The notes under the pieces were generated by a model. That model had not been told where the DNA came from. It was given only the letters and a program-made list of their open reading frames with translations, and did not search any database. DNA of 64,000 nt from a virus. Its lineage: Duplodnaviria > Caudoviricetes. The stretch is taken from IMG/VR virus record IMGVR_UViG_3300009095_000010, positions 32,001 to 96,000 of that record. The stretch is one strand, 5' to 3'. The position numbers and the translations under genes are program-made. Positions 19,768 to 56,253 of this stretch are shown here, piece by piece (positions within the stretch are counted from its first letter, which is position 1; every line of letters begins with the position of its first letter).

Positions 19768-21237
19768 TTATCCTATTTTATTTACTTGGAAACTGCAATC
19801 TTCTATATCAGGATCTTCTATAGATGAAAAACCATTATCTAAAGCTTCATCTTCAAGTTCCATCAATAACTCTTCTTTATTTAGAGTAGAAAGATCCTTT
19901 ATCTTTGTTGCCCTGGGCATCTTAACCTTTTTAGAAGATCTATCCTCCGGAAGACTTGGAGGCGCTTTGTAATCCAATATATCAGAAAGAACAAAAGATG
20001 TTGAATGTTCATTTTCCCATTGAAATGAACCAAGGAAACGAATAGCAATACCAGGCTCAATAGACTGCTTTCCATTGGAGAGTTCCTTTTCAATCCTGGT
20101 CTTCATGCCATCCCAAGCTTCTGGAAAACAAAGCATCGCCGCCTCATCTCCCCAAGGATCCTGAAGGGTAAGGCGAGCCATCTCTTGACCAAAGATAGGT
20201 GAGTCTTCTTTTTTTACTATAAAAGAAAAGACCGATGTCACCACCGCTTCAATGGGTCGGATCTTTTGGTTACCAAGATAGTGTGTATTTGCTTTTCGGT
20301 TTGTGCGCTCATCATCGCTTTTAAGTTCCCAGGGAAACATCTGCTGCAATGCCGCAAATGGTATTGTCTTGTTCTTGTCGAAGAATTTCGGGTACCGGTC
20401 GAATGTATTTCCACTTATTCCCTCACCCATATAGAAATCTTCTAGAGCAAAGAGTTCTTGTATGGTCCATGGCGTCTCTACCGGGAAAGGATATTGAAAC
20501 TGAGCAACATGATCTTTGACCCGCTGATCTTCCGGGTTAAGCTTTGGAGGATTGTGTCGGCCGTTTGAATTATACCAAAACATCCCAAGCTCATCCTCAC
20601 CCTTCTTATAACCATTTACCGCAGCCCATTCTTTGGTAATCTGACGTTCAAGACGACCCATATGATTTCTCAATTTGGCTCTGTAGTCTGATGCGTAATG
20701 AAACATTTGTTTCCGATCCATCTGAAACGAATCAAGCGAGCCAGATGCCGCCATGGCTTGAATACTAGGAGAGCGAACCTTCCTAGAATCAGTTCTATAA
20801 ATTAGATCTTGAAAAGAAACAAATGGACGTTTGTCTATCAATTCTGGAATTGCATCCTGCCCCATATACTTCAAAGAGTCTAAACCTGTCATTAGAGTAT
20901 TATCATCAACAATCTTCCATGATAAAGATGACGTGTTCAAATCGGGAGGAACAATCCTAACCTTCTTATTTCGAATCTCGGCTTTGATCTTGAGGATATT
21001 ATCTTTGGATGCCTTAGCATTCGAACGAACTTCGGATATCAAGTTCGCGACCAGGAACTCAATGGAATAATTAGCTTTGAGATAAGCTGTATGAAATGAA
21101 ATCATCGAATATAGAGTAGCGTGTGAGTTGCTCGTTAACATTCCATTGCTAAGGTAATATTGATGATCAGGATGCCTAACTTCAAGATCATATGTCTGAG
21201 CCTTTCCTATTGGAGTAACCGATTTGATGTTAGTCAT
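19768..21237 (-). CDS. dnaE: DNA polymerase III alpha C-terminal part, preceded by the C-half of a split intein
   Basis: IntC ..LTSN|SHATLYSMISFHTAYLKANY; PPDLNTS; HhH GLDSLKYMG; OB-fold MARLTLQD. Own SD (AAGGA) and ATG. Confidence 0.92.
   Translation of the reverse strand: MTNIKSVTPIGKAQTYDLEVRHPDHQYYLSNGMLTSNSHATLYSMISFHTAYLKANYSIEFLVANLISEVRSNAKASKDNILKIKAEIRNKKVRIVPPDLNTSSLSWKIVDDNTLMTGLDSLKYMGQDAIPELIDKRPFVSFQDLIYRTDSRKVRSPSIQAMAASGSLDSFQMDRKQMFHYASDYRAKLRNHMGRLERQITKEWAAVNGYKKGEDELGMFWYNSNGRHNPPKLNPEDQRVKDHVAQFQYPFPVETPWTIQELFALEDFYMGEGISGNTFDRYPKFFDKNKTIPFAALQQMFPWELKSDDERTNRKANTHYLGNQKIRPIEAVVTSVFSFIVKKEDSPIFGQEMARLTLQDPWGDEAAMLCFPEAWDGMKTRIEKELSNGKQSIEPGIAIRFLGSFQWENEHSTSFVLSDILDYKAPPSLPEDRSSKKVKMPRATKIKDLSTLNKEELLMELEDEALDNGFSSIEDPDIEDCSFQVNKIG
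21127..21237 (-). mobile_element. split intein C-fragment (37 aa)
   Basis: MTNIKSVTPIGKAQTYDLEV..HQYYLSNGMLTSN followed by Ser+1. Confidence 0.9.
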
Positions 21238-21386
21238 ATATTCCTTGGATCAAATAACTTTACATCATTGATGGCCTCGATTTTAAACAACTCACGCTGA
21301 TATGGAGTTTCAAAATTTACTGTAAACTTTTTATTTAGGCCGCACACATTTTCAAGAACAACTTCTTTTCTTTTATATTTAGTCAT
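21234..21386 (-). CDS. 50-aa ORF between endonuclease and dnaE-C
   Basis: Translated by hand: MTKYKRKEVVLENVCGLNKKFTVNFETPYQRELFKIEAINDVKLFDPRNI. Overlaps both neighbours. Confidence 0.45.
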   Translation of the reverse strand: MTKYKRKEVVLENVCGLNKKFTVNFETPYQRELFKIEAINDVKLFDPRNI

Positions 21387-22410
21387 ATAGCTCACCTATT
21401 TTATAAACCCCTCGTTTAGGATTGTTCAATATTTCAAACACTTTTTCCATACATTCTTTATTGAATCCATAATCAGACTTGCGATACGAAAATTGATCAT
21501 AAGATACTCGTATCAATATCCATCCGTGTCTTATAATATGCTCATCTAACAAACGATCCTTTTCTTGTACTGCTTCGAGCTGATTCAAGCCAGTTTGTTT
21601 AAAATGCAGTGGTCCATCAAACTCAACGTAAACCCGCTTAGACTTATCACCAATATCAACCTGTTTACGTTTCGACTTTGAAATAAACAATTCTGATTTA
21701 ACTATTTGATTTTGTTTAAAACTATAACCGTTTACATCTTTTAATAAATCAAACAACAATAGTTCTGGCTTACTTTTCCAAGAATCTTTCATTTGAAAGG
21801 TACATTTTTCATAAAACTCATCTGGATTTTCATCACGCCATTTCTTCAAATTAGCCGCGCGTTTCTCTTGAATATCTTTTCGAGCTGATGTTTTCTTTGC
21901 AGTATCAGATGCCTTTTGACGCATTGCATCTGTCTTATTCACATCAGACATCACCTGTGCTCGACGCTTTCGATCATCAGGAGAAGATAAAATGGATTCT
22001 CGAACAGCCTTACCCATTCGTTCTTTATAATCGGTTAGATCATCTCCACGTTCATTTGCTCGCGTAATCCAATTACCATTATCTTTTGCTGTTGATTCAT
22101 ATTTCAATCTCGAAGATTCACAGAGAACTTCACCATCATATTCTTCAGGTTGTACTCCATGAACCTCTCGCAAATGAGAAGCCAATCTCTTGGCGTGCCA
22201 CCCACATATCTTGCAAACTACAAAATCTTTACCTTCTGGTAAAAGATCATACTTAACCTTGCAATCTGTGATATGACTATCGGCTTTACTCAGGCCCCAG
22301 AAGTTCTTGTGACATCGCTTACAACAATAGACAGTCCGTCCTTTAGAATCTGATGTAACGGCAACATCTCTCCCGTCTCTATAGTTCTGAACTTGTGATT
22401 CATTGTGCAT
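21379..22410 (-). CDS. free-standing Vsr/DUF559-like homing endonuclease with zinc fingers
   Basis: CKRC..H..C; CKIC..HLREVH; NUMOD3-like basic repeats; SKPE..VDI..VEFDGPLHF..D..GWILIRV. Confidence 0.8.
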   Translation of the reverse strand: MHNESQVQNYRDGRDVAVTSDSKGRTVYCCKRCHKNFWGLSKADSHITDCKVKYDLLPEGKDFVVCKICGWHAKRLASHLREVHGVQPEEYDGEVLCESSRLKYESTAKDNGNWITRANERGDDLTDYKERMGKAVRESILSSPDDRKRRAQVMSDVNKTDAMRQKASDTAKKTSARKDIQEKRAANLKKWRDENPDEFYEKCTFQMKDSWKSKPELLLFDLLKDVNGYSFKQNQIVKSELFISKSKRKQVDIGDKSKRVYVEFDGPLHFKQTGLNQLEAVQEKDRLLDEHIIRHGWILIRVSYDQFSYRKSDYGFNKECMEKVFEILNNPKRGVYKIGELYD

Positions 22411-25046
22411 TTTACTCTCTCTCCAGTTTCAAGCTCAACCTCAACCACATCAAGCTCCCCATGATCATGATTACCAATCACTTCAATGTAGATATCCTGT
22501 CCAGTACCTTCGTCCCTAGAGCGGACGAACTCCCCATGTTGAATATCTTGAATTGGCTTGGTTGTTAGGTAAGATCCTTCTGGAGTGTATATATCAATGG
22601 GTTCTAAAAAGTACAAACAACGATTGAACCCATAGCCGCCGAACTGCGCAATAGTCTCATCCCAAACTCTTGTTGCAGTTTCTTCTGTGAGGCCCTTGTT
22701 CTTCACTGCCCCTTCAATGAATTCCTCTCTCCACTTCGCAACCTTCTCTGGATTCTTACCTTTCTCTTTGGTAAGTTTACGAAGCTTATCCGCATCGTGG
22801 AGATCCCATCCAGCAACATCTTGTGCCAGATACATTAAACTCTCTTCATACAAACCATATCCATACGTTGAGGCAAAAGCACGATGAAGAGTTGGATGCA
22901 TCAAAGATATCTTCTCATCTCCATTACGAACTTTGAGAAGATCAGGAATCGTATCTTTTGCTGCCGGACGCACAAGAGCAGAGACCAGGGCGATATCCTC
23001 TACCGATCTTGGCTTCACTTTCTTACAAACAGGAACAGCAGTGGATCCAAGTTGGAACACACCAAAGGTATCACCTTCACCAATAAGATGATAAGTCTTA
23101 TCATCAACAACTTCGTAATCGAAGGGCTCTCCTGGTAACGTCTTTCCCGTTTCCAAGATAAGCTTATATGTTTCACCAATAATGTCTAAAGTCTCCAAGC
23201 CAAGAGTATCAATCTTGACCAGACCATTTTCTTCAGCAAGTTCCTTGTCGTACTCCAGAACAAGCGCACCGTTTGCGTCACGACGAAGTGGAACCAATCC
23301 CTCTAAAGGCCTTTTAGAAACAACAATACCACCAGCGTGAGTTGACCACGCTCTTGGTAAACCACAAAGGTCCGCATACTCTTCAAGCTCTGGATATTGC
23401 TTTGCGTATTCTGCAAAGAGAGGAGCGTCCGTCAGAGCTTTCTTGATAGACTTTACATCATCAGGAAGTGAGTCTGCAATGTTGTTTCCAATCTCAGCAG
23501 CAACAGATCTTCCTTGACCACCAAATTCAAATACGCGAGCAATGTCTCTTGCATACACCTTCGGTGTGATGGTGTTGATATTAGAAACGTGAGCTACGTT
23601 TCCTTCACCATACTTGGAACGTAAGTAATCATGAAGCTTCGCTCTTCCTGATGGAGCAATATCATTATCAATATCCGGAAAGGCTTCTTTGTACTTGTTC
23701 AAGAAGCGAGCAAAGATAAGACCATAACGCTTGGGATATGCTTGGTGAATTCCGTTGACGTACGCCGTAAGAGAACCACCAACCGAACCACGACCAGGTC
23801 CGATGGCAATCATATTCTTTCGACACCAGTTGAGGAAGTCAGCGGTGATGAGCATGTAAGAGCTGAAGTTTCTGTACTCAAGAACGTCGAACTCTTCGAG
23901 CATTTGCTCTACACACTCATCGTAATCATCCTCTGGAACTTTTCCCTTTTCAATTTTCTTTTCTAGACCCTCAAGTGATCGATACCTATAAAACAAAGCA
24001 TCGTCTGCAATTTGGTCATCCATCACTTTGGTGGTTTTGAAACCCGTCTGACTAGCTCTCCACTTTTCAAAGTCAAGATAGTCTGGTTCGTCTTTATAGG
24101 GAAACTCGGGAAGCTGAGATTTTTCTCCAGTGCTTATCGCAGGATCAATCCAGTTAGGTTCTTCACACTGGTCTGCATAATACACAGTGTTTTCAAATAA
24201 AGATTCAACAAACTCTTCGCCCCACATTTTGATATGACGTTCAAAGTGTTGGTAAACCTGATCGGAGTTCTTGACATAGAACTCGTGCTTGTCATAACGC
24301 AAACGATTACCAGAAGTAATGGGCTGACCCGAGCCAATGCAAAGATAAGCATCATGTCTCTTATGGTCTTCCTTCTTGAGGTAATGAGCATCAGTAGCAA
24401 CTATACAACGTATACCAAGCTTCTGACCAATACTCTTGAGAGCCATATTGATCTTCTGCTGATTGACCGGACCAGAATACGGAGAATTTCTTCTTTGAAG
24501 ATTATGAGGCTGAAGCTCTAGAGCGAAGTTATCACCAAAGATGGTCTGCAATCTTTTGACCGCCTCTTCTGCTTCTTGTGGTTGATCGTTCATAATATAC
24601 TGGGAAACTAATCCGTTTCCACAAGCAGATGTACAAATCAAACCATCACTGAATTCTTCAAGCATCTTCCAATCCACACGCGGGACTGCTTTCTTGAAGA
24701 CTACAGAATACTTATCAAACCCTCTCTTGTTTAGCTTGAGAAGATTCTCATACCCAACAGCGTTCTTTGCTAAGAACACAAGATGACGGAAGTTTGAATC
24801 TTCTGCGTCATCAGAGTCATCTACGAAGTAACACTCACAACCAGCAATGAGTTTAATTTCGGCTTTCTTAGCTGCTTTAAAAGCCTCCCACACAGCAGAT
24901 AAAGAGCCGTGGTCTGTGATGGCCACGGCTGTCTGCCCAGCATCTTTGGTTGCTGAAATTAGATCTTTTGGAGAGATGATGGAATCTCCAATAGAACCGG
25001 TCGTATGGTTATGCAGACTTACGTATTTTCTCACTAAGCACCTCAT
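22290..25046 (-). CDS. dnaE: DNA polymerase III alpha N-terminal part (PHP + catalytic core) ending in the N-half of a split intein
   Basis: LHNHT, ITDHG, TDAHY, GPGRGSVGGSL, PDIDND, THAGG, KIDTLGL, GVFQ, GYGFNR|C. Start may be GTG 25034. Confidence 0.95.
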   Translation of the reverse strand: MRCLVRKYVSLHNHTTGSIGDSIISPKDLISATKDAGQTAVAITDHGSLSAVWEAFKAAKKAEIKLIAGCECYFVDDSDDAEDSNFRHLVFLAKNAVGYENLLKLNKRGFDKYSVVFKKAVPRVDWKMLEEFSDGLICTSACGNGLVSQYIMNDQPQEAEEAVKRLQTIFGDNFALELQPHNLQRRNSPYSGPVNQQKINMALKSIGQKLGIRCIVATDAHYLKKEDHKRHDAYLCIGSGQPITSGNRLRYDKHEFYVKNSDQVYQHFERHIKMWGEEFVESLFENTVYYADQCEEPNWIDPAISTGEKSQLPEFPYKDEPDYLDFEKWRASQTGFKTTKVMDDQIADDALFYRYRSLEGLEKKIEKGKVPEDDYDECVEQMLEEFDVLEYRNFSSYMLITADFLNWCRKNMIAIGPGRGSVGGSLTAYVNGIHQAYPKRYGLIFARFLNKYKEAFPDIDNDIAPSGRAKLHDYLRSKYGEGNVAHVSNINTITPKVYARDIARVFEFGGQGRSVAAEIGNNIADSLPDDVKSIKKALTDAPLFAEYAKQYPELEEYADLCGLPRAWSTHAGGIVVSKRPLEGLVPLRRDANGALVLEYDKELAEENGLVKIDTLGLETLDIIGETYKLILETGKTLPGEPFDYEVVDDKTYHLIGEGDTFGVFQLGSTAVPVCKKVKPRSVEDIALVSALVRPAAKDTIPDLLKVRNGDEKISLMHPTLHRAFASTYGYGLYEESLMYLAQDVAGWDLHDADKLRKLTKEKGKNPEKVAKWREEFIEGAVKNKGLTEETATRVWDETIAQFGGYGFNRCLYFLEPIDIYTPEGSYLTTKPIQDIQHGEFVRSRDEGTGQDIYIEVIGNHDHGELDVVEVELETGERVKCTMNHKFRTIETGEMLPLHQILKDGLSIVVSDVTRTSGA
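22293..22619 (-). mobile_element. split intein N-fragment (109 aa)
   Basis: CLYFLEPIDI..KPIQDI..GEFVRS..VKCTMNHKF (block B TxxH), then stop. Confidence 0.9.
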
Positions 25047-26032: not shown

Positions 26033-27316
26033 TTACTCAATAACTGTTGCTTGATCTGTAATCCACTGTAAAGTGAACTCATCTTTTATTGAATTGATCA
26101 AGCTAACAATATACGGTCTAGCTTGTGGGTTGTTGATAATTGCAGGATTCTGTCCTTGCGCTTGAAGATGTTGCACCAAATGATTTTGAGCTTCACCATC
26201 ATTCAAAACAGAATCTGGTTCACCTTCACGAACACTGTCAAGAATCAAGGACAGCCGAGTATTTTTCTCGGCTTGTTCCGAAATTCTATTCTTCTCAGTT
26301 TCATCAAGATCTTTGAAGAGCAAACCTGATTGCATAGCAATGTTTCGAGCTTCGCTTTCAACAATGAAATCTGGAACCTTGAATTTATTCGCTTCAACAA
26401 GCCTGATAGCAATTTGATTTCTTTTTTCCTGTTGAGCTGTTTTCTGAATAGAAGCCTTAGAAATTGTTCTAAGTTTATCCATCATCTCTTTCAAGCTATC
26501 AACGCCCATCATTTTTAGAAAGTCTTCATTAACAGGATGTGGCTTACGCTTCGTTCCCATATGAATAGTTACTGAAAATTTTGCTTGCTTCCCGAGCAGG
26601 GTATCGGGACCAGACTCAAACTTGAAATCAAACTCTTTTGTCTCTCCTGCCCTCATTCCTAAAAGATTGTCATCCCAACCACTCCAGCGGTCAGAGCCGA
26701 CCTGATACATCTCTCCCTCTACCAAAGATCCATCAAACGTTTCTCCTTCAATGGTTGCTTCAAATGACAGCGTGAGCTGATCCCCAATTTCAACAATATC
26801 ATCTTCTTCATATGGCTCTGTCTCACCAACACGAAGTCTTAGATTGAAAAGAGATTTTTCTGCAAGAGCTTCCTCATCAAGAGGACCAGTATCAGGTTTT
26901 GGAATCTCAAACCTCAAATCAGAAAGCTCAAACTCTGGTTTCTTTGTCAGTTCAACATCACATGAAAAAACATTTCCTTTGATTGAAATGTTACTGAAAG
27001 ATGGCTGACCAATTGGTTTGATATCTGTTTCAAAAACAATATCATCAATTGCCGCAGTTGCCATTTCACGAGCAATGAATTGATTAATTTGCGGACGAAG
27101 TCGAACTTTGATTGCACTATCAGGAGCTTTTCCTTTTCTAAATCCTGGTATTTGAATATTACGAAGATTAGATACAGCCTCTTCAAGTTTTTGACTTACA
27201 ATATCCGGATCTCCAATATAATGAACCTTTAGTTTGCAATAATCAGGCTCTTCAATATTTAAGATTGGATATTCTAATGTTTCTTTTTCTTCTTTTATAT
27301 TTGGCGCTTCATTCAT
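26033..27316 (-). CDS. tig: trigger factor (ribosome-associated chaperone/PPIase)
   Basis: Signature IPGFRKGKAP; FKBP domain (GDQLTLSF..IEGETFDG..GMRAGETKEF); C-domain VPDFIVESE; 427 aa. Confidence 0.92.
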   Translation of the reverse strand: MNEAPNIKEEKETLEYPILNIEEPDYCKLKVHYIGDPDIVSQKLEEAVSNLRNIQIPGFRKGKAPDSAIKVRLRPQINQFIAREMATAAIDDIVFETDIKPIGQPSFSNISIKGNVFSCDVELTKKPEFELSDLRFEIPKPDTGPLDEEALAEKSLFNLRLRVGETEPYEEDDIVEIGDQLTLSFEATIEGETFDGSLVEGEMYQVGSDRWSGWDDNLLGMRAGETKEFDFKFESGPDTLLGKQAKFSVTIHMGTKRKPHPVNEDFLKMMGVDSLKEMMDKLRTISKASIQKTAQQEKRNQIAIRLVEANKFKVPDFIVESEARNIAMQSGLLFKDLDETEKNRISEQAEKNTRLSLILDSVREGEPDSVLNDGEAQNHLVQHLQAQGQNPAIINNPQARPYIVSLINSIKDEFTLQWITDQATVIE

Positions 27317-39281: not shown

Positions 39282-39716
39282 TCATCGAACAGCGACATCT
39301 GGCAACAGCACACCTTTTAGATGGTCCAGTTCATGTTGAGCTATGACTGCTAAAAAATCAGTCAGTATGAATCTATATGGCCAAACCAAGTTGTTCTCTA
39401 CAAGTATCTCTTGGTATCGAAGTGTTCTCTCAAACCTATCGGGGTAGCTCAAACATCCCTCGCCCTCAAATTCAAATTGATTGTAAGACTTTGTAATGGA
39501 AGCATTGACCAAATCAATTTTGATAGACTTATCTGGTCGAATAATACACATCTGCTTCCCAATACCAATTTGAGGGCAAGCCAAACCAACACCAGGCCTT
39601 CCCTGGCTTGCAGACCACTCCAAGGCTCGTTCAAGCTTGGCTCTTAGGTCATCTACCTCTTCTGGTAAGACAGGCTCACAGGTGATTCTCAGAGCCTCTT
39701 CATCCGTGATAATCAC
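39282..39716 (-). CDS. def: peptide deformylase
   Basis: GVGLACPQIG, EGCLS, QHELDHLKG; short C-terminus. Confidence 0.93.
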   Translation of the reverse strand: MIITDEEALRITCEPVLPEEVDDLRAKLERALEWSASQGRPGVGLACPQIGIGKQMCIIRPDKSIKIDLVNASITKSYNQFEFEGEGCLSYPDRFERTLRYQEILVENNLVWPYRFILTDFLAVIAQHELDHLKGVLLPDVAVR

Positions 39717-41813: not shown

Positions 41814-43631
41814 TTAGGTTTTAAACACTGCCGAAAATGTCTCAAACCTTTTCTTCATAACCTCAATAGCCTGGGGATTCTCATCAACCAAAAGACAATG
41901 ACGATTGTGTAGGTATGCAGCGTGCCCAAACGATCCAGAACCGGCAAAAAAATCAAGCGTAAAATCACCTGGAGAAGAATGAATCTTTACAATTCTTTCA
42001 AGGATACCCAAAGGTTTCTGTGTGGGATATCCAGTCTTTTCTTTTCCGTTTGTTGGAACAATGGTATGCCACCAACAATTACCACACACCACTGGATATC
42101 CATTACGTCTAACAACTAATGTATGATATGGCTCAACTGTAGCACAATAAACATATCCATCGTACTTTGTATGTGATAAATGACGATCTCTCCAAATACT
42201 GCTTTCATTAGCAACTCTCCTATACACAGTATATTTTGGATAGTTTGAATGGATAATACGATTATTGTAAACCCTATCAGGGGATGGTTCAGTAATTGTT
42301 ATCGAGCTATTATACCCAAGCTTAAATAGTAATTCTTGAACCTGATCAGCCAATATTGGTGAGGTTGTAAAATACGAAATTTGATCTTGATTATTTTCAA
42401 GACCAGCAACTATAGAACCATCCCCACCAACAAGACCATCATATAAAGCCTGCAAATAGGGTCGATCTAATTCAAGAAATTCTTTTGGTATGTATTTTTC
42501 GTGAGAAAATCCAAGTTGAGAAAGGTATAACGCTAATATTTTACCAGAAATAACATAACTATTATTATTATAATGCCACTTAAACCCCAAACGATTTAAG
42601 AGAAGTTCTATTCTTAATTTTTGATTCGGTTTTGTTTGAGATATGTTTGTCTCATATCTCATTTCACTACGTCTTTTTTGTTTGTTTCTCTGAACATTTC
42701 GTATTGTTACACTGCCCTCAGAAATATACCATCCAAGAAATTCACACCAATCAATCATATTAAGATTGTTGAACTTCTTTGTTTTTTTAGAAGAATCTTT
42801 TGGTAAGTTATATGTATTCTGAACTTTGCCAACCCAACAAGTTTTATTTAATAATGTAAAATATTGCGAAGAATCAAGATCACAAGCATGTACAAAATCA
42901 TATTTGTCTGCATGTTTCTTTTTTACGTACATATTATGGTTTGGAGTTACCAACAAATCTACTGTTTTAGATTTTATCTTTATCATATCACCATTATGAT
43001 ATCTTGTGTGTAAGGCTGTTGGTTTTGTGTAAATCAGATTATTTTCAGGTGAAACAGAAGCAAGATCATCATCTAACGTAACTGTAGAAAACCTTTTCCA
43101 ACCTTGGCTGGTTAAAACATCAGTATCATCTGAATAACAATCTGTCGGCGTCTTCCCTCTTTCAGCCTTTTCTTTTCCAACCAATCCAGGTGCCATGTAA
43201 GGAATTCTTTCCATTTCATCAAAATTGAATGTATAGTTTTTATTATTCTTTACGTACCATAAAATATTATCATGTTTAGATGACCACTTGGATTTAGATC
43301 TTCCGCCATAATCATAAGCCCAGATAATTTCATTCATGAAGTTATCTCTTCCGAATATTTTATCTGTCCAAACTTTTACGTAATGAGCTTCATGCCAATC
43401 AAGGTGAATAAACAAACTCCCAGAATCAGAAAGCAGTCGATATGCCTCCTGAATTCTGGGAACAATAAACTCTTCAAAGTTGTTACCAAAAGAATCTTTA
43501 TATTCTTTTTCGCCACGGGCTTGTTTCTTGCCCGTATTGAAAGGCGGATCTATATAAATTAATTTGAAATAACCATCAGGTAGTGATGGTAGAGAGGTAT
43601 TGTTATTGGCATGAACTATCTCTAAGACCAT
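41814..43631 (-). CDS. N4-C/N6-A DNA methyltransferase (beta class) containing an intein
   Basis: YIDPPF, NEIIW, YPTQKP, LDFFAGSGS. Confidence 0.9.
   Translation of the reverse strand: MVLEIVHANNNTSLPSLPDGYFKLIYIDPPFNTGKKQARGEKEYKDSFGNNFEEFIVPRIQEAYRLLSDSGSLFIHLDWHEAHYVKVWTDKIFGRDNFMNEIIWAYDYGGRSKSKWSSKHDNILWYVKNNKNYTFNFDEMERIPYMAPGLVGKEKAERGKTPTDCYSDDTDVLTSQGWKRFSTVTLDDDLASVSPENNLIYTKPTALHTRYHNGDMIKIKSKTVDLLVTPNHNMYVKKKHADKYDFVHACDLDSSQYFTLLNKTCWVGKVQNTYNLPKDSSKKTKKFNNLNMIDWCEFLGWYISEGSVTIRNVQRNKQKRRSEMRYETNISQTKPNQKLRIELLLNRLGFKWHYNNNSYVISGKILALYLSQLGFSHEKYIPKEFLELDRPYLQALYDGLVGGDGSIVAGLENNQDQISYFTTSPILADQVQELLFKLGYNSSITITEPSPDRVYNNRIIHSNYPKYTVYRRVANESSIWRDRHLSHTKYDGYVYCATVEPYHTLVVRRNGYPVVCGNCWWHTIVPTNGKEKTGYPTQKPLGILERIVKIHSSPGDFTLDFFAGSGSFGHAAYLHNRHCLLVDENPQAIEVMKKRFETFSAVFKT
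42078..43139 (-). mobile_element. 354-aa intein with LAGLIDADG endonuclease
   Basis: TPTD|CYSDDTDVLT..VTPNH..FLGWYISEG..LVGGDG..VYCATV..VCGN|CWW. Confidence 0.9.
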
Positions 43632-49654: not shown

Positions 49655-49992
49655 TTTATGCTTTCTATATCATTTATGATATTATCTATTTTAGCTATAG
49701 ATAGTTCTATTTTTTTAGACTCAAGCTCTTTAAGCTTTTCTTGATGAAGCTTTCTAAGAACAAATTGACGCTTCATATCGGAGAGCGAGTACTTACTCCT
49801 TGGTTTCTTTGCATCGAAATCCATTGATTCTGATAGAGTCTCTATTGGTAAAGAGTGAAACCAAGAAAGAACCTCTTCATTGGAGCCATTAAAGATGTAG
49901 TGCTCATGTTCCTGAATAATAGCCTGCAAGTCTAAATTCAGATCGTTGACACACCTTTCTAACTCTCTAACTTCAGCGTTCCTCAACTTCAT
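49651..49992 (-). CDS. hypothetical protein
   Basis: 113 aa ORF. Confidence 0.55.
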   Translation of the reverse strand: MKLRNAEVRELERCVNDLNLDLQAIIQEHEHYIFNGSNEEVLSWFHSLPIETLSESMDFDAKKPRSKYSLSDMKRQFVLRKLHQEKLKELESKKIELSIAKIDNIINDIESIK

Positions 49993-50401
49993 AGCCTAAC
50001 TCTCGAAGGAACTCGGCTGCATGGGTTCTGTAGCTTGTGTGACCACCACGCTCCCAGGAAAGAAGGGTATCCCCTTCTTCGAAACCTACTAGTTGTTTAA
50101 TAGTGAGACCCGTCTTCTCAGCCTCTTTTTCTAAAGCTTCCTTGAAATCATTGAGTCTTTGTTTGTATCCGGATACAAAATCATCACCAGCTTTCTTGAT
50201 AAGCTCTGCGTCATCCCCAGCTGCTTTCTTTGCTTTGTGATAATCCCAATACACATCCTCTGGCGAAAGCCAATCATGACAAATCTCACAATCATAACCG
50301 CACTCCTCTTGAAGATTGTTTGGTTTAGATGGAGAGATTCCAATTTTTCTACCAGGACCATGAACTTCCGGTTCCCAAAATGATGCTGTATAAATCTTCA
50401 T
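49973..50401 (-). CDS. DUF488-like protein
   Basis: MKIYTAS..IGIS..P..LSP..Y..TLLSWE..HTSYR..A.FL. Confidence 0.5.
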   Translation of the reverse strand: MKIYTASFWEPEVHGPGRKIGISPSKPNNLQEECGYDCEICHDWLSPEDVYWDYHKAKKAAGDDAELIKKAGDDFVSGYKQRLNDFKEALEKEAEKTGLTIKQLVGFEEGDTLLSWERGGHTSYRTHAAEFLRELGYEVEER

Positions 50402-50555: not shown

Positions 50556-51242
50556 TCATATAGTGTCCGCCTCATTTAATGTAAGCGGAGTTAACTCCAT
50601 CGGTTTATCCGATGGAGGGACATTTATTCGATAAGTTGTATCTATTGATTCCTTTCCAGAATCGGCAGGGAATCTTTTCAATACATGTACTTGATATTCT
50701 CCAGGGGAGAGCGCCATCAACCATCGACCTTTTGGGTTTGTTCTAGTCTGATTTATCAACATACCAGTTTGATCTAGAACTTCTACAGATGCAAGAAACA
50801 AAGGCTGACCATCTTCTCTATATAAGATTTGAGATACAGATGCTTTGACACTTGACTTTGCTCCGCGCTGTCCTCGGGAAGCCCCCCTAGAAGAAGCTTC
50901 AATCATATCGTCACCATCAGGATCTGGAGGTAGAGTCGATGGCCTTGCCTCAATAACAGATTCATTACGGGCAGGTTCCCTCTCAACATCTAAACCATGT
51001 TGCTTTGCAAGATCAGCAAACCTACTAGTCTTATCTCTATGATCAAAATTGTCTTTATTAATAGGACCAGTTACCTTGGATGGTTTTGGAGTTTCTGGCT
51101 GAAGCTTTGGTGTTTGATTGTTGATGTTATTCAACAACACCTTTAAAAGATTTTCAACATTAGCAAACCGCTTAGATAAAGTTTCTACTTTGGTTTCTAG
51201 TCCAAGTAAAATATCTGTTGCTGATCTTTTATCTTCAGTCAT
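50556..51242 (-). CDS. hypothetical protein with C-terminal carboxypeptidase-regulatory-like beta domain
   Basis: Coiled coil, disordered linker, then DGQPL..ASV.V..TRTNPKGRW..LSPGEY.V. Confidence 0.6.
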   Translation of the reverse strand: MTEDKRSATDILLGLETKVETLSKRFANVENLLKVLLNNINNQTPKLQPETPKPSKVTGPINKDNFDHRDKTSRFADLAKQHGLDVEREPARNESVIEARPSTLPPDPDGDDMIEASSRGASRGQRGAKSSVKASVSQILYREDGQPLFLASVEVLDQTGMLINQTRTNPKGRWLMALSPGEYQVHVLKRFPADSGKESIDTTYRINVPPSDKPMELTPLTLNEADTI

Positions 51243-51282: not shown

Positions 51283-52308
51283 TCAATCACCTAAAATTAT
51301 ACCAAAATCTATTGGTACTCTTTTAATTACCTGAACTCTGGTAACTTCTATATTATTACCAAGAATAAGTTTTGAAAGAATATCTCTTGCTGAGATTGCA
51401 TCCTGCGCTGTACTGTAAAGTTTATCATCTACAAGTATTGCAAAGAACCCTTCTTGCAGGGAGGATATCTTTGCCGTTTGAGTAGGATAATACCCTTTAT
51501 CATTATCATCTGAACTAGAGCGATCTTCACTGGATGTGAATTCTTCCTCCGACTCATCTTCTATTTCAAGAGAGTCTTTCTTTGCTTGTATTTCAAGCTT
51601 GATATTTTCAACAGCGTAGTTGACAATCTCTCCAACCACTCGCCTCTCTTCGGTTGGAATATTTTTAAATTCTTTCAACAGAGTTGTGAGGTCACTACTC
51701 TTCCCAAAGATTTTAGATCTAACCTCATCAAGATCATCCAATGATGGCGCTGAATAGATAGATGCCAAAGCATCCTCTTCAATCATGGAGAGAATTCTCT
51801 CGAACTTCTGGCGAATTTCCGAGCCCTCTTCTGTTTTTAGATCTGCAAAAGGATCTGCTCCTTGTAGAGACTCTACATCTACTTCATCATTGTTATCAAT
51901 AATAACATCATCAACAGATTCTTTTTTTCTGGAAGGCCCAGTAACCTCTGGGGCATACCAAGTATGCTCTTTCTGACCTACCGCAACGAAGTTCGCTCTT
52001 GGTGGAAAGAATCCATCATCATCTCCTACTGATGGTAGAGGAGAGCCTTTCTTAGGTATACCTGTAGGAACCTTTACATTCTGTGATGGCAGTGACGCCT
52101 TTACCTGCACAGGTTCGTTAGGAATGTCTTCCATTACAGGAATATCTCCTTTGTTCTTTGGCGTGGGAGAAACTTTTGGAATACCAAACTCATCATGTAG
52201 AAGAGATCTTCCTCCCTCTTTTGGTTCGAGATCCAAACGCTGATATTCTGGAGGTTGTCGCTTCGCCTCTAATATCCGCCTAACTCTATTGCCTTTTTTA
52301 TCATCCAT
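51283..52308 (-). CDS. protein with an isolated PheRS-alpha N-terminal (tRNA-binding coiled-coil) domain
   Basis: About 51565-51795: ALASIYSAPSLDDLDEVRSKIFGKSSDLTTLLKEFKNIPTEERRVVGEIVN. No class II synthetase motifs. Confidence 0.7.
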   Translation of the reverse strand: MDDKKGNRVRRILEAKRQPPEYQRLDLEPKEGGRSLLHDEFGIPKVSPTPKNKGDIPVMEDIPNEPVQVKASLPSQNVKVPTGIPKKGSPLPSVGDDDGFFPPRANFVAVGQKEHTWYAPEVTGPSRKKESVDDVIIDNNDEVDVESLQGADPFADLKTEEGSEIRQKFERILSMIEEDALASIYSAPSLDDLDEVRSKIFGKSSDLTTLLKEFKNIPTEERRVVGEIVNYAVENIKLEIQAKKDSLEIEDESEEEFTSSEDRSSSDDNDKGYYPTQTAKISSLQEGFFAILVDDKLYSTAQDAISARDILSKLILGNNIEVTRVQVIKRVPIDFGIILGD

Positions 52309-52636
52309 CAAAAGCTCCCACTGAGCGCTCATCTTTACTAATCTTTTTTTGCGCCTTTCTTTTCTGACGACGATCCCATTCGCCAGACTTCATCATGCGC
52401 TCTCGCATTTCAGTCATAAGCCTACGATCCCTAGCTTCTCTGCGTTTGCGGCGCTTTTTTTCGCTAGGCTTCTCATAAGACATCTTTTCTTTTACTTGAC
52501 CAACAACACGTTCCTTTTGGAACAAAGTTTTGAACTTTCTAAAAGCATATTCAAAATCTTCTCTGGAGGAGCCCTCTACGACTACCTCTATTGGTCTAAC
52601 CTTATGTTTTACATCATATAACTCTGGTGCTGGCAT
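52301..52636 (-). CDS. rpsU: ribosomal protein bS21 with extensions
   Basis: IEVVV..FEYAFRKFK..E.VV..VK..YEKPSEKKRRKRREA. Confidence 0.88.
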   Translation of the reverse strand: MPAPELYDVKHKVRPIEVVVEGSSREDFEYAFRKFKTLFQKERVVGQVKEKMSYEKPSEKKRRKRREARDRRLMTEMRERMMKSGEWDRRQKRKAQKKISKDERSVGAFDG

Positions 52637-53946
52637 TAGAATAATTCCTCTCTATCATCTGTCAGGTCTCTTTTTTTAGATTCGAAATCAGAATCTGCTG
52701 AGTCTTTTTCTTCAGAAACTTGTTTCAGAGACAACAATACATCTTCTTCATTTGGGATTTCTCGACCTTCTGGAATTGCAATAAACACAGCATTGAAGTA
52801 AATCTCTTGCAGATGAGCATACGTAAAATTCTTCTTAACAGTTTTATTTGCAATAACATCAATGCTGTTTGATGTTAATATATCACCAAAATACTTCGTT
52901 AGATACTTTTTACTATGTTCTAAATCAGGAAGTGGAAACTCAAAAAAGCGATCAAATCTACGTGGACGGCTCTTTAAGTTCTGCTCTAGATCTGAGAAGT
53001 CATTTCCCGTAACAACCGTTAGGATACCGTCACGTTTCACAACACCATCCAAAAGCTGGAGGAAGTGACGAGTATCTACGGTTCTCATCATCTCTTGCAA
53101 ATCCTCAAAGAAGAGAAGGGATGGGGCGTGTTCTTCGGCGTACTCAAAGGCATCTTCCAAGAGTTCATCTGGAGATGAGTGTCCAGGCTGAATAGTGACC
53201 GGCTTGAACTCCTTGTACTGAGACATAAGTAAGCGCAGAACGCTTGTTTTCCCACAACCACGCTCGCCCCAAAATCCAATACCTCGTCTCCAAGGCACTT
53301 TGAGTTTTTGATAAATGGATTTGGACTGAAGGAACCCTTCAACAGTTGTTACAATCTTCTTCTTTAAATCATCTGGTAAGAAGATATCATCCCAAGTCAT
53401 ATCAGAACTGTAAGGTATTGGTGCCCCACCAATCACTTCAATCTCTTGAGTCTCGCGCTCACGTTTCTTTTGCCAATCCTCAAACTCATTTCTGAAGTTC
53501 ACATATTTCTCAAAAGAAGATGACTGAACAAGAACGAAAAAAGAAACCTCATCTTCGTTTTGATTTCCTTTGTGAAACAATCCGCAATGAAAGAACTTAA
53601 GTTCATCAATAGTTATTTCATAGATACCAATACCAACGAAGTGTTCATCTTTATGATCGGACTGCCACGATGTAATACCATCAGAGTGTATTGCTTTTAC
53701 TTTAGCACCCTTCTCTTCTGCATACTGAAGGAAGGTGCCATCAATAGAAATTTTGTTATGAACAAAAGGTATCCAATCTTCTTGTGATGTTTCTCGAATA
53801 ACATTCATTTGAGCCCATCTCATAAGCTCAACAAAGCTACCCTCAGGTCTAATTATTTTATTATCGTATGCAGAATAAATATTATTAAGTCTTGCAATAC
53901 TAAGATGTTCTTGTTTGGAAATTTCCTTTTCAGAAAGGCGTGTCAT
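52636..53946 (-). CDS. AAA+ ATPase (classical AAA clade, no protease domain)
   Basis: WDDIFL; RRGIGFWGERGCGKT; LLFFED; LDG; SRH RPRRFDRFFEFPLP. Confidence 0.85.
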   Translation of the reverse strand: MTRLSEKEISKQEHLSIARLNNIYSAYDNKIIRPEGSFVELMRWAQMNVIRETSQEDWIPFVHNKISIDGTFLQYAEEKGAKVKAIHSDGITSWQSDHKDEHFVGIGIYEITIDELKFFHCGLFHKGNQNEDEVSFFVLVQSSSFEKYVNFRNEFEDWQKKRERETQEIEVIGGAPIPYSSDMTWDDIFLPDDLKKKIVTTVEGFLQSKSIYQKLKVPWRRGIGFWGERGCGKTSVLRLLMSQYKEFKPVTIQPGHSSPDELLEDAFEYAEEHAPSLLFFEDLQEMMRTVDTRHFLQLLDGVVKRDGILTVVTGNDFSDLEQNLKSRPRRFDRFFEFPLPDLEHSKKYLTKYFGDILTSNSIDVIANKTVKKNFTYAHLQEIYFNAVFIAIPEGREIPNEEDVLLSLKQVSEEKDSADSDFESKKRDLTDDREELF

Positions 53947-54114: not shown

Positions 54115-56253
54115 TCATTTCAGAACCTGTTCAACTTTCTTTGAATAAACAGGTGGTGTAACTTTCTTTGGATCCAACCAATTCAAGTTAGCGTTCTCTG
54201 GAAGCTCCTCGACATGTTTACAATTTGGATATCCCATACATGCAAGTTTCATTTTATCAGACATCAACGTTGCATATAGCTCATCGCCACAGTCAGGACA
54301 CTTCTTTCCAAAAGGGATCTTTCTCTTACCTTTACACCTTGGATATTCTGAACATGAATAAAATGGACCAAACTTTCCATCTGGTCTTGGTACCATTCCA
54401 GAACCACACTCTGGACAGATTACATCCGAATCAATCTTAGCTTTCTGTGTTTTTTGAACAGCCTTTCCATCTTCAATAGAGATGTTGGCGATTCCATCAC
54501 AACCACCTTTATACTTCACACACCCAGCAAAGAATCCATATTTGGATTTTCTAACAACAGTTTCTGCGCCACACTTTGGACAAGGGATATCTGTTACCAT
54601 TCCCTGCAAGCCGCGAGCCTTTTGAAACTCTTCTTTGAACGAATTAAAGAAATTAGACATCATCGAAACATAGTCAAGCTTGCCTTCTGCAATTTGATCT
54701 AATTGCTTTTCCATATCAGCTGTGTACATATAATCCATAAAGGTAAAATTACCCTTCAGATCTTCAACAACCTTTCGTCCAAGATCGGTAGGAATAAATC
54801 CCTTAGCCGTATTCTTTACGTACTTACGAACAGAGATACGAGAAATAATGGATGCATAAGTACTGGGACGACCTATCTCTTTACGTTCTAACTCAGCAAT
54901 CAAAGAAGCCTCGCCATATCTGGGTGGAGGTTTTGTTTGTGACTTTTCAAGCTTTACCTTGGGAGGGGTCAGGACAACATCATCATTTATAGAAAGATTT
55001 GGTAAGATTACATCCTTATCCTTTTTGAGGAATGGTTTTGCAATAGACATCCAACCTTCTTCTTTTTGAATCTTTCCTTCAGCAACAAGAATGTGATTGG
55101 TAGATGTCTGAACAGATACCTTAACAACATCAAAAACAGCTGGGTTCATTTGAGAGGAAACGAACATACACCAAATCAAATTGTATATTTTTTTCTCATC
55201 ACCATCTAGAGCTATAGTATCCGGATGAGCCAATATGTTGGATGGGCGAATAGCTTCATGCGCATCCTGAGCGGCATCTTTATTCTTAAACTCGTTAGGT
55301 AATTTAGGAATGGTAAAGCCCTTTTCAGTTAGGTATTGCCTAAGAGCTGTTATAGATTCAACGCTGTTTCTTGTAGAATCTGTACGAATATATGTAACAT
55401 GACCACCCTCATAAAGCTTCTGAGCAGCCGCCATTGTGCTCTCAGCTTTGATCTTCAGCTTGGTAGATGCTTCTTGCTGAAGCATTGATGTAGTCAATGG
55501 AGGCGGAGCTTTTCTTATGTTCTGCTTGGTTTGAATATCAGAAATTTTGTACGTACATGAATCAAGATCTTTTTTGATTTGTACAGCCTCATCCTCTTCC
55601 GTAATCCTTGTTGGATATTTCGCAGTAAAGCTAATAGGATCTCCATCCTTTAAAAGAGTTGTTGAGATATTGAAAAACACTTCTGGTACAAAAATATCAA
55701 TCTCATCTTCCCTATCAACAATCATTCGAAGGGTAACGGACTGAACACGACCCGCACTCAACTTATCTCCAAGCTTATGAGAGAGATAAGGAGATACCAT
55801 AAACCCAACAATTCGATCTAATACACGGCGAGCTTGTTGTGCATCAAACAAATCTTGGTTGAATTCACGAGGATTTTCTATAGCTTTAAGAATTGCGCTT
55901 CTGGTAATTTCATTGAACTCAATTCTTTTCATAGGCTTCTGTAAGTCTTTGAGTTGAGAAACAACATGAAAAGCTATTGCCTCACCTTCCCTATCAGCAT
56001 CGGATGCTATAAAGATTTCATCTACAGACCTAGCAGCATCTATGATTGCTCTTATCTTATCTTTCTTATCTGGTAAGACTTCATATTTTGGGGTGAAGTT
56101 ATTCTGAATATCAACTCCAATATCACCACCTTTACCACTAGCAAGATCAATAATGTGACCAACCGTAGGACGAACGGTATACCCGGCCCCAAGGATCTTA
56201 CTAATGGTCTTTACTTTTCCCGGTGATTCTACAACAACAAGAGCATTAGTCAT
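54115..56253 (-). CDS. topA: DNA topoisomerase I (type IA) with C4 zinc ribbons
   Basis: VVESPGK, DADREGE, SAGRVQ, VTYIRTDS, QDAHEAIRP, GRPSTY, three zinc ribbons. Confidence 0.96.
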   Translation of the reverse strand: MTNALVVVESPGKVKTISKILGAGYTVRPTVGHIIDLASGKGGDIGVDIQNNFTPKYEVLPDKKDKIRAIIDAARSVDEIFIASDADREGEAIAFHVVSQLKDLQKPMKRIEFNEITRSAILKAIENPREFNQDLFDAQQARRVLDRIVGFMVSPYLSHKLGDKLSAGRVQSVTLRMIVDREDEIDIFVPEVFFNISTTLLKDGDPISFTAKYPTRITEEDEAVQIKKDLDSCTYKISDIQTKQNIRKAPPPLTTSMLQQEASTKLKIKAESTMAAAQKLYEGGHVTYIRTDSTRNSVESITALRQYLTEKGFTIPKLPNEFKNKDAAQDAHEAIRPSNILAHPDTIALDGDEKKIYNLIWCMFVSSQMNPAVFDVVKVSVQTSTNHILVAEGKIQKEEGWMSIAKPFLKKDKDVILPNLSINDDVVLTPPKVKLEKSQTKPPPRYGEASLIAELERKEIGRPSTYASIISRISVRKYVKNTAKGFIPTDLGRKVVEDLKGNFTFMDYMYTADMEKQLDQIAEGKLDYVSMMSNFFNSFKEEFQKARGLQGMVTDIPCPKCGAETVVRKSKYGFFAGCVKYKGGCDGIANISIEDGKAVQKTQKAKIDSDVICPECGSGMVPRPDGKFGPFYSCSEYPRCKGKRKIPFGKKCPDCGDELYATLMSDKMKLACMGYPNCKHVEELPENANLNWLDPKKVTPPVYSKKVEQVLK

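Follow-up and report, generated by a model that had tools for sequence, protein, structure and literature searches.

What does the tRNA-touching arm of a bacterial phenylalanyl-tRNA synthetase (PheRS) do inside a phage protein that is not a synthetase? The question is raised by a minus-strand gene of a giant soil phage, here called X (51283..52308), in a window of 64,000 nucleotides that comprises bases 32001-96000 of a 124,337-bp IMG/VR virus record. The record was rated 29% complete by CheckV, which implies a genome of ∼430 kb, and ∼94% of its ORFs lie on the minus strand.

Layout of X and homology of its arm

The longest ORF over gene X spans 51283..52332 on the minus strand (349 aa). The true start is likely M9 (ATG, 52308), because a GGGAG sequence is located 6 nt upstream of this codon and the database copy of the protein has a length of 341 aa. 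The gene would then occupy 51283-52308 and encode 341 aa with a pI of 4.65 and a net charge of -22. Four parts, all on the minus strand, follow one another in the protein: an N-terminal region (51838..52308, residues 9-165 of the ORF) with the best-conserved short motifs of the family (PEYQRLD.EP..GG.SLLHDE.G.PK, F.PP..NFV.VG...H.W and DNN..VD.E.LQG), a coiled-coil arm of the PheS alpha N-terminal (alpha1) type (51535..51831, residues 168-266), an acidic linker rich in Ser, Asp and Glu (51463..51534, residues 267-290), and a C-terminal beta-beta-alpha-beta domain (51286..51462) with a conserved KR.PIDFG tail at its end. The AlphaFold2 model had pLDDT values of 85-95 over residues 170-265 and was also confident for the small domain at residues 297-345. 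Elsewhere the values were low, including the N-terminal region, and they fell below 50 in the linker. The original prediction had called the flanks of the arm disordered. The low model confidence agrees with this, but the family alignment placed its invariant or nearly invariant columns in the N-terminal region and the C-terminal tail, while the arm was moderately conserved. As conservation within the family is strongest in the motifs of the flanks, these are not plain disordered filler despite the low model confidence.

The PheS N-terminal pattern had been noticed by eye at ∼51565-51795, and this placement was correct. In a Pfam scan the domain PF02912 (Phe_tRNA-synt_N) matched residues 197-260 of X (nt 51553-51744) with an E-value of 2e-14 and 53.8 bits, against a Pfam cut-off of 22.3 bits, and it was the sole match at E-values up to 1. 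A PDB profile search with 27 family members returned PheRS alpha chains only, always over their residues ∼3-90 (4p71_C at 1.9e-8, 6oz5_A, 3pco_A and 1b70_A), from species that included E. coli, T. thermophilus and A. baumannii. When the X model was searched against the PDB with Foldseek, ranks 1-19 among the matches listed were PheRS alpha chains throughout. The best superpositions, 7ka0_A and 7k98_A, had an rmsd of 2.0 Å over 90 columns (E ∼1e-3) and placed the arm on the PheRS alpha chain of M. tuberculosis. In the model the arm (residues 168-266) forms a hairpin of one helix, two short helices and one long helix. A PHROG of unknown function, phrog_19793, also matched X, and its first 89 positions match the arm. 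These results support the assignment of the arm as a true PheS alpha N-terminal domain within an otherwise unrelated, non-enzymatic phage protein.

No catalytic synthetase core accompanies the arm, in agreement with the first description of the gene. The class II core domain PF01409 (tRNA-synt_2d) was absent from the X ORF, from the contig and from three related phage records, one of which is 100% complete, and the positive control of this search was found in 14/14 genomes. No phage pheS or pheT was found on the contig or in the three related records, and no tRNA genes were found on the contig.

The remainder of X gave no clear match. Scans of X with Pfam, PHROG, NCBIfam and PADLOC gave nothing beyond PF02912 and phrog_19793, and the PADLOC scan for defense and counter-defense systems had no match for X, for the downstream gene Y or for the short form of X described below. 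For the fold of the X core, the best E-value was 0.5 in Foldseek against the PDB and 0.05 in BFVD, the best Z-score in a wide VIA-align search was 4.2, to unrelated folds, and the viral structure library had no match for X. When the C-terminal domain was compared with DUF5678 (PF18929) in the ESM Atlas, the TM-score by target was 0.51 over 53 residues, and there was no Pfam match.

Crystal structures of the M. tuberculosis PheRS-tRNA complex give a reference for the residues of the arm. In this complex the alpha1 domain touches the D-loop and T-loop of the tRNA: Arg45, Arg56 and Asp37 bond G19/U20 of tRNA-Phe, and Asn64, Ala57 and Arg45 bond C56/G57. The number of such contacts is small and they differ between crystals, and most of the tRNA affinity and specificity of PheRS comes from the anticodon domain of the beta subunit (PMC8136816). 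Using the offset to E. coli numbering, the Arg of the P.EER motif and the Asn of the G..(I/V)N motif probably correspond to M. tuberculosis Arg56 and Asn64. Across the X arms the signature residues were kept at Gly34 (79%), Lys35 (54%), Gly37 (85%), Arg54 (61%), Gly58 (79%) and Asn62 (67%), compared with 95-100% at these positions in real PheS. The conservation of individual columns in X arms and real PheS was correlated (Spearman 0.39, p 1e-4). The X of this phage reads GKSSDLT, PTEER and G..VN, with the Arg and the Asn kept and a Ser in place of the second Gly of GKxG. It retains the head residues Arg29, Lys35, Lys44, Arg54 and Asn62 and has no basic residues at columns 36 and 65.

From PheS to the X arms, basic residues fell from 96% to 21% at column 36 (K/R), from 98% to 54% at column 44 and from 100% to 8% at column 65. 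The net charge of the head was +1.1 in X arms and +3.6 in PheS, a loss of ∼2.5 positive charges, the distal helix had -6.0 compared with -1.8, and the whole arm had -7.0 compared with -0.2. At the base of the second helix the X arms have also gained a patch, L-E-F-x-A-K-E-x-E-L (Lys 90%, Glu 85-87%), that is not conserved in PheS. Judged from these substitution patterns, the arm is under selection, in part PheS-like, though a different one from that acting in PheRS.

The X family and the origin of the arm

X has 45 full-length relatives. In an exhaustive profile search, which covered 1.84 billion representatives, 43 proteins had E<1e-30 and the count rose to 87 with E<1e-10. The matches down to ∼E 1e-9 included many proteins of 180-290 aa that aligned at the N- and C-terminal parts only. 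The remaining proteins in the best 150 matches were N-terminal fragments of real PheS, and as none of the best 150 (down to E ∼5e-9) was longer than 393 aa, there were no fused forms of X among them. The family is recognized by its N-terminal motifs together with the C-terminal KR..IDFG domain, both of which occur in the X of the window, and it was found on huge-phage contigs only.

Most X proteins (180-280 aa) carry no PheS arm and have a short acidic linker in its place. PF02912 was detected at E<0.01 in 32/84 family members. An HMM built from real PheS fragments matched 39/84, all of which have at least 281 aa, and no shorter member. In the short forms the middle of the protein is an acidic or Gln-rich linker of 15-60 residues. 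A model of the short form, based on 84 sequences, was confident for the C-terminal beta-beta-alpha-beta domain only; stretches of its N-terminal region had pLDDT values of 80-90 without regular structure. Pfam and PADLOC scans of the short form gave no matches, and a PDB profile search gave only a non-significant match to Q-beta A1. As most relatives of X lack the arm, the core job of the family is independent of the chemistry of the tRNA arm.

A maximum-likelihood tree was calculated after the columns of the arm and the linker had been taken out, and thus from the N- and C-terminal parts alone. A single clade (46 rows, SH-aLRT 86) contained 38 arm-bearing proteins and 8 with a degenerate helical insert, and one more arm-bearing row was placed just outside this clade, in an unresolved fork. 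Every arm-less row fell outside the clade. Because a tree without the arm columns groups nearly all arm-bearers in one clade, the PheS arm was probably grafted into X in one event. The simplest history is that a bacterial PheS arm was captured once into the linker of an existing phage protein, with later divergence and, along some lines, decay. Two proteins elsewhere in the tree, P0091 and P0109, carry a separate insert that is barely PheS-like (E 0.05-0.09) and sit on a long branch.

Two candidate relatives outside the huge phages were rejected. The sole cultured-phage match to X was in unannotated DNA of Pseudomonas phage SC_8_H2H8_2017 (MT121966.1, 1-5224), with an annotated IF-3 gene ∼760 nt upstream of the match. 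Since this layout resembles the bacterial infC...pheS operon, the match is most likely genuine host PheS. The record starts with the IF-3 gene followed by the PheS-like stretch, and this looks like a prophage-derived record with host DNA at one end. The only match in bacterial genomes, a 349-aa ORF in a Candidatus Scatovivens MAG, aligned with X over the arm only and is most likely an ordinary PheS.

Linkage of X to phage bS21 and the surrounding genes

In the window, X is preceded by a gene for phage ribosomal protein bS21 (52301..52636, minus strand; 111 aa, pI 10.2, net charge +14), which was identified by PF01165 (5e-12) and by a TIGR00030 match above the cut-off. The stop of the bS21 gene overlaps the start of X. 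Upstream of bS21 is a classical AAA+ ATPase of the PAN/CDC48/FtsH-like type (52636..53946, minus strand), whose stop overlaps the bS21 start, and TopA (54115-56253, minus strand) is at the head of the TopA-AAA+-bS21-X-Y order. Gene Y (50556..51242, minus strand) encodes an N-terminal helix and a C-terminal CarboxypepD_reg/transthyretin-like beta domain; the helix is conserved (ATDILL..E.K...L) and is followed by a variable Pro-rich linker. Y was downstream of X in nearly all related loci, and the AAA+ ATPase was present in most, though not all, of them.

The linkage between bS21 and X was strict. bS21 was directly upstream of X in 18/18 loci in which X was found (14 long-form and 4 short-form), in most of them with a stop/start overlap of 4-11 nt. 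The reverse search started from 76 IMG/VR phage bS21 loci. X was directly behind bS21 in 42/42 loci with the closest bS21, one of these X genes being seen only at a sensitive search setting. All 42 had the TopA...Y context, and the arm was present only in the four nearest to the window. In the remaining 34 loci, whose bS21 is more distant, X, Y and TopA were absent, and no frame contained an X-family ORF. Altogether, the bS21-X pair occurred without exception across ∼55 contigs of this bS21 lineage. In one locus (L102) three genes, of which two are encoded on the opposite strand, have come between X and Y, and bS21 and X are still joined; the genes for the AAA protein, g142 and the methylase occur in only part of the X loci. 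A tblastn search with phage bS21 and short-form X against 50,697 phage records, a megablast search with the operon and viral scans with two sub-alignments of short-form X returned no matches or loci. A promoter and terminator scan found nothing above shuffled sequences inside the operon.

The whole TopA-(AAA)-S21-X-Y-(MTase) block is collinear across this phage lineage, and overlaps also join AAA to bS21 and X to Y. As collinearity extends over the whole block and phages pack their genes tightly, the linkage of bS21 and X alone does not prove a functional pair. X was the fastest-evolving gene of the block, with 32-46% identity compared with 56-77% for bS21. Among the best-conserved genes of the block, together with TopA, was that of a 142-aa protein (49973-50401, minus strand), which had 66-80% identity in the long-form X loci, 58% in L018 and 45% in L021, and no Pfam, PHROG or NCBIfam match. 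The phage bS21 itself has a C-terminal extension past the normal S21 end (K.GEWDRRQK...) that was conserved in 15 long-form X loci; it was present in L021, a phage with an arm-less X, and absent in L019.

Further genes on the contig bear on the setting of X. A trigger factor homolog is encoded at 26033-27316 (minus strand; Trigger_N 5e-19, FKBP_C, Trigger_C) and a peptide deformylase at 39291-39707 (minus strand; PF01327, 6.5e-24). Trigger factor is a ribosome-associated chaperone and unusual in phages, and peptide deformylase is likewise ribosome-associated. A deformylase gene was also present in 3/4 related huge-phage records; in L019 it is located ∼2 kb downstream of the S21-X-Y genes. A translation-related setting of X is supported by bS21 directly upstream and by the trigger factor and deformylase on the same contig. 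The contig also encodes DNA polymerase III alpha over two ORFs (19768-25046, minus strand), with the PHP, core and finger parts in 22290-25046 and HHH_6 in 19768-21237, and a DNA methylase (N6_N4_Mtase, 41814-43631, minus strand) that is split by an intein, which itself carries a LAGLIDADG endonuclease domain. In L019, a complete relative of 472 kb, a pair of neighboring ClpP-like genes was identified by eye, together with a DksA-type zinc-finger gene, at 315-1556, ∼2-3 kb upstream of the TopA-S21-X block.

Proposed role of X and comparison with known systems

We propose, with a probability of roughly 40%, that X acts together with phage bS21 in ribosome reprogramming and that the arm is an added RNA-contacting or spacer element. 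In one large lineage of huge phages, X would be a constant partner encoded downstream of phage bS21, non-enzymatic and strongly acidic. Its ancestral form would have joined the conserved N-terminal peptide motifs through a short acidic linker to the small C-terminal beta-beta-alpha-beta domain, and in the clade of this phage the linker would have been replaced once by the coiled-coil arm of bacterial PheRS alpha. On the small ribosomal subunit of the host, X could work alongside phage bS21, as an acidic escort or loader of the very basic bS21 or as a co-factor bound beside it, and the PheS-derived arm would be a rigid extension that possibly still touches an RNA elbow, of tRNA or of rRNA. We infer the contact between bS21 and X, the binding of X to the ribosome and the binding of RNA by the arm; the opposite net charges of the two proteins (-22 and +14) were counted in favor of their pairing. 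Against the proposal stand the missing homology or fold match of the X core to any ribosome factor, the many X proteins without an arm, the loss of basic head residues from the arm, the Ser in the GKxG motif of this protein, the fast evolution of X and the collinear block, in which the adjacency of bS21 and X may be inherited gene order. A more specific version, in which bS21 and X form a two-protein ribosome-remodeling unit, with X beside bS21 on the 30S platform and the arm gripping the elbow of a ribosome-bound tRNA (in the E/P site or the initiator), is unlikely in our estimate.

In the main rival to a partnership with bS21, the arm is no more than a stiff, acidic coiled-coil spacer in place of a flexible acidic linker, the job of X has nothing to do with translation (for example in DNA metabolism, near TopA and the methylase, or in assembly) and its position behind bS21 is frozen synteny. 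We consider this doubtful but a serious contender. The acidic linker of arm-less X proteins fits a spacer, as do the strongly acidic turn of the arm itself, the basic residues lost from its head and its newly conserved base patch, and the collinear block with TopA, methylase and HNH genes as neighbors fits frozen synteny. The PheS-specific Gly, Arg and Asn of the head, however, are still consensus after long divergence, which a plain spacer would not require, even if the glycines may be structural, and the bS21-X pair stays joined in L102 despite the displaced Y and also in loci that differ in AAA, g142 and methylase. Another possibility, in which X, together with Y, serves in the virion or its assembly, for example in scaffolding or decoration, would account for short conserved motifs in a low-confidence chain with a small domain and for the transthyretin-like beta domain of Y, a kind common in surface proteins; in another phage group, moreover, bS21 has head genes around it and shows late expression (PMC9723584). 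As the X operon sits among replication and DNA-modification genes, and X has neither a match in the viral structure library nor a PHROG of known function, we hold this to be very unlikely.

The remaining explanations take the PheRS origin of the arm more literally, and they go back to the original prediction of a non-enzymatic tRNA binder, decoy or PheRS modulator. Both are weakened by the arm-less orthologs in the same operon slot, by the less basic head and by the lack of a defense or pheST context. That X is a free tRNA binder, acting as a decoy for tRNA-Phe or for tRNA elbows, as a shield or as a recruiter, would agree with the true homology and fold of the alpha1 domain, with the five head residues retained in this phage and with the D-loop and T-loop contacts of alpha1 in PheRS. 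Yet in PheRS itself these contacts are few and variable and the beta subunit provides most of the tRNA affinity (PMC8136816), and we regard a free tRNA binder as quite unlikely. Its suggested use as a shield against anticodon nucleases found no backing: the PADLOC scan showed no defense or counter-defense signature and the contig has no tRNA gene. Modulation of host PheRS, for example if X were to dock onto it or to vie with the PheRS arm for tRNA-Phe, has only the domain origin in its favor. To our knowledge the arm does not mediate contacts between PheRS subunits, no phage pheS or pheT was found, and the core X family works without the arm; of all readings we consider this one the most improbable.

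Should the bS21-X unit be real, X would be a virus-invented accessory ribosomal protein made in part from an aminoacyl-tRNA synthetase. Phage-encoded bS21 is widespread, and one large lineage of huge phages links it strictly to X. Provided that X binds to bS21 or to the 30S subunit, the mode of action of phage bS21 becomes testable with two small proteins, and the orthologs with and without the captured tRNA arm of PheRS constitute a natural experiment.

Several known systems resemble the bS21-X pair in part. In Francisella, rpsU is followed by yqeY, the two genes are co-regulated and possibly translationally coupled, and YqeY is a stand-alone protein with GatB/GlnRS-type tRNA-related domains (PMC13374519). 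The rpsU-yqeY arrangement of Francisella and Bacillota is like bS21-X in that bS21 is followed by a stand-alone, non-enzymatic protein with a domain of tRNA-enzyme type. YqeY is built of GatB/GlnRS-type domains, whereas the X core consists of peptide motifs and the beta-beta-alpha-beta domain; no sequence relation was found, and the YqeY domain GatB_Yqey (PF09424) had no match in X (E up to 1) or in the 84 family members (E<0.01). Among huge phages, the bS21 neighbor bS21_CN (Chen et al., 2022, PMC9723584; Mizuno et al., 2019, PMC6375957) is likewise a lineage-specific hypothetical protein that tracks bS21. By its description it is set apart from X: it belongs to another phage group and lies in a context of head genes on the opposite strand. 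In eukaryotes, Tsr2 is a dedicated carrier for eS26 (PMC4161973, PMC6131548) that shields this one ribosomal protein and hands it over to the small subunit. An acidic X and a basic bS21 might act in a similar way, a likeness drawn by analogy only.

The closest relative of the arm is the alpha1 domain of bacterial PheRS (PF02912; 7ka0, 4p71, 6oz5, 1b70), with which it is homologous in sequence and fold, sharing the hairpin and, with the changes in its head given above, the signature motifs GK..LT, P.EER and G..(I/V)N. In PheRS the domain is N-terminal, whereas in X it is internal and has neither a catalytic core nor a beta-subunit partner, its head is less basic, its stalk is strongly acidic and its base carries a conserved patch of its own. 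The first description of the gene knew of no phage protein with this architecture, and a full-text literature search for PF02912 and Phe_tRNA-synt_N likewise returned nothing on a phage or non-synthetase use of the domain; the studies of phage bS21 that were consulted deal with different gene contexts. As far as found in this search, X is the first case of a PheS alpha1 arm outside a synthetase. Phage bS21 is known, and so are free-standing or appended RNA-binding modules derived from synthetases; new is the presence of the PheS alpha1 arm in a phage protein family that is linked to bS21, which adds the arm of X to the list of such modules.
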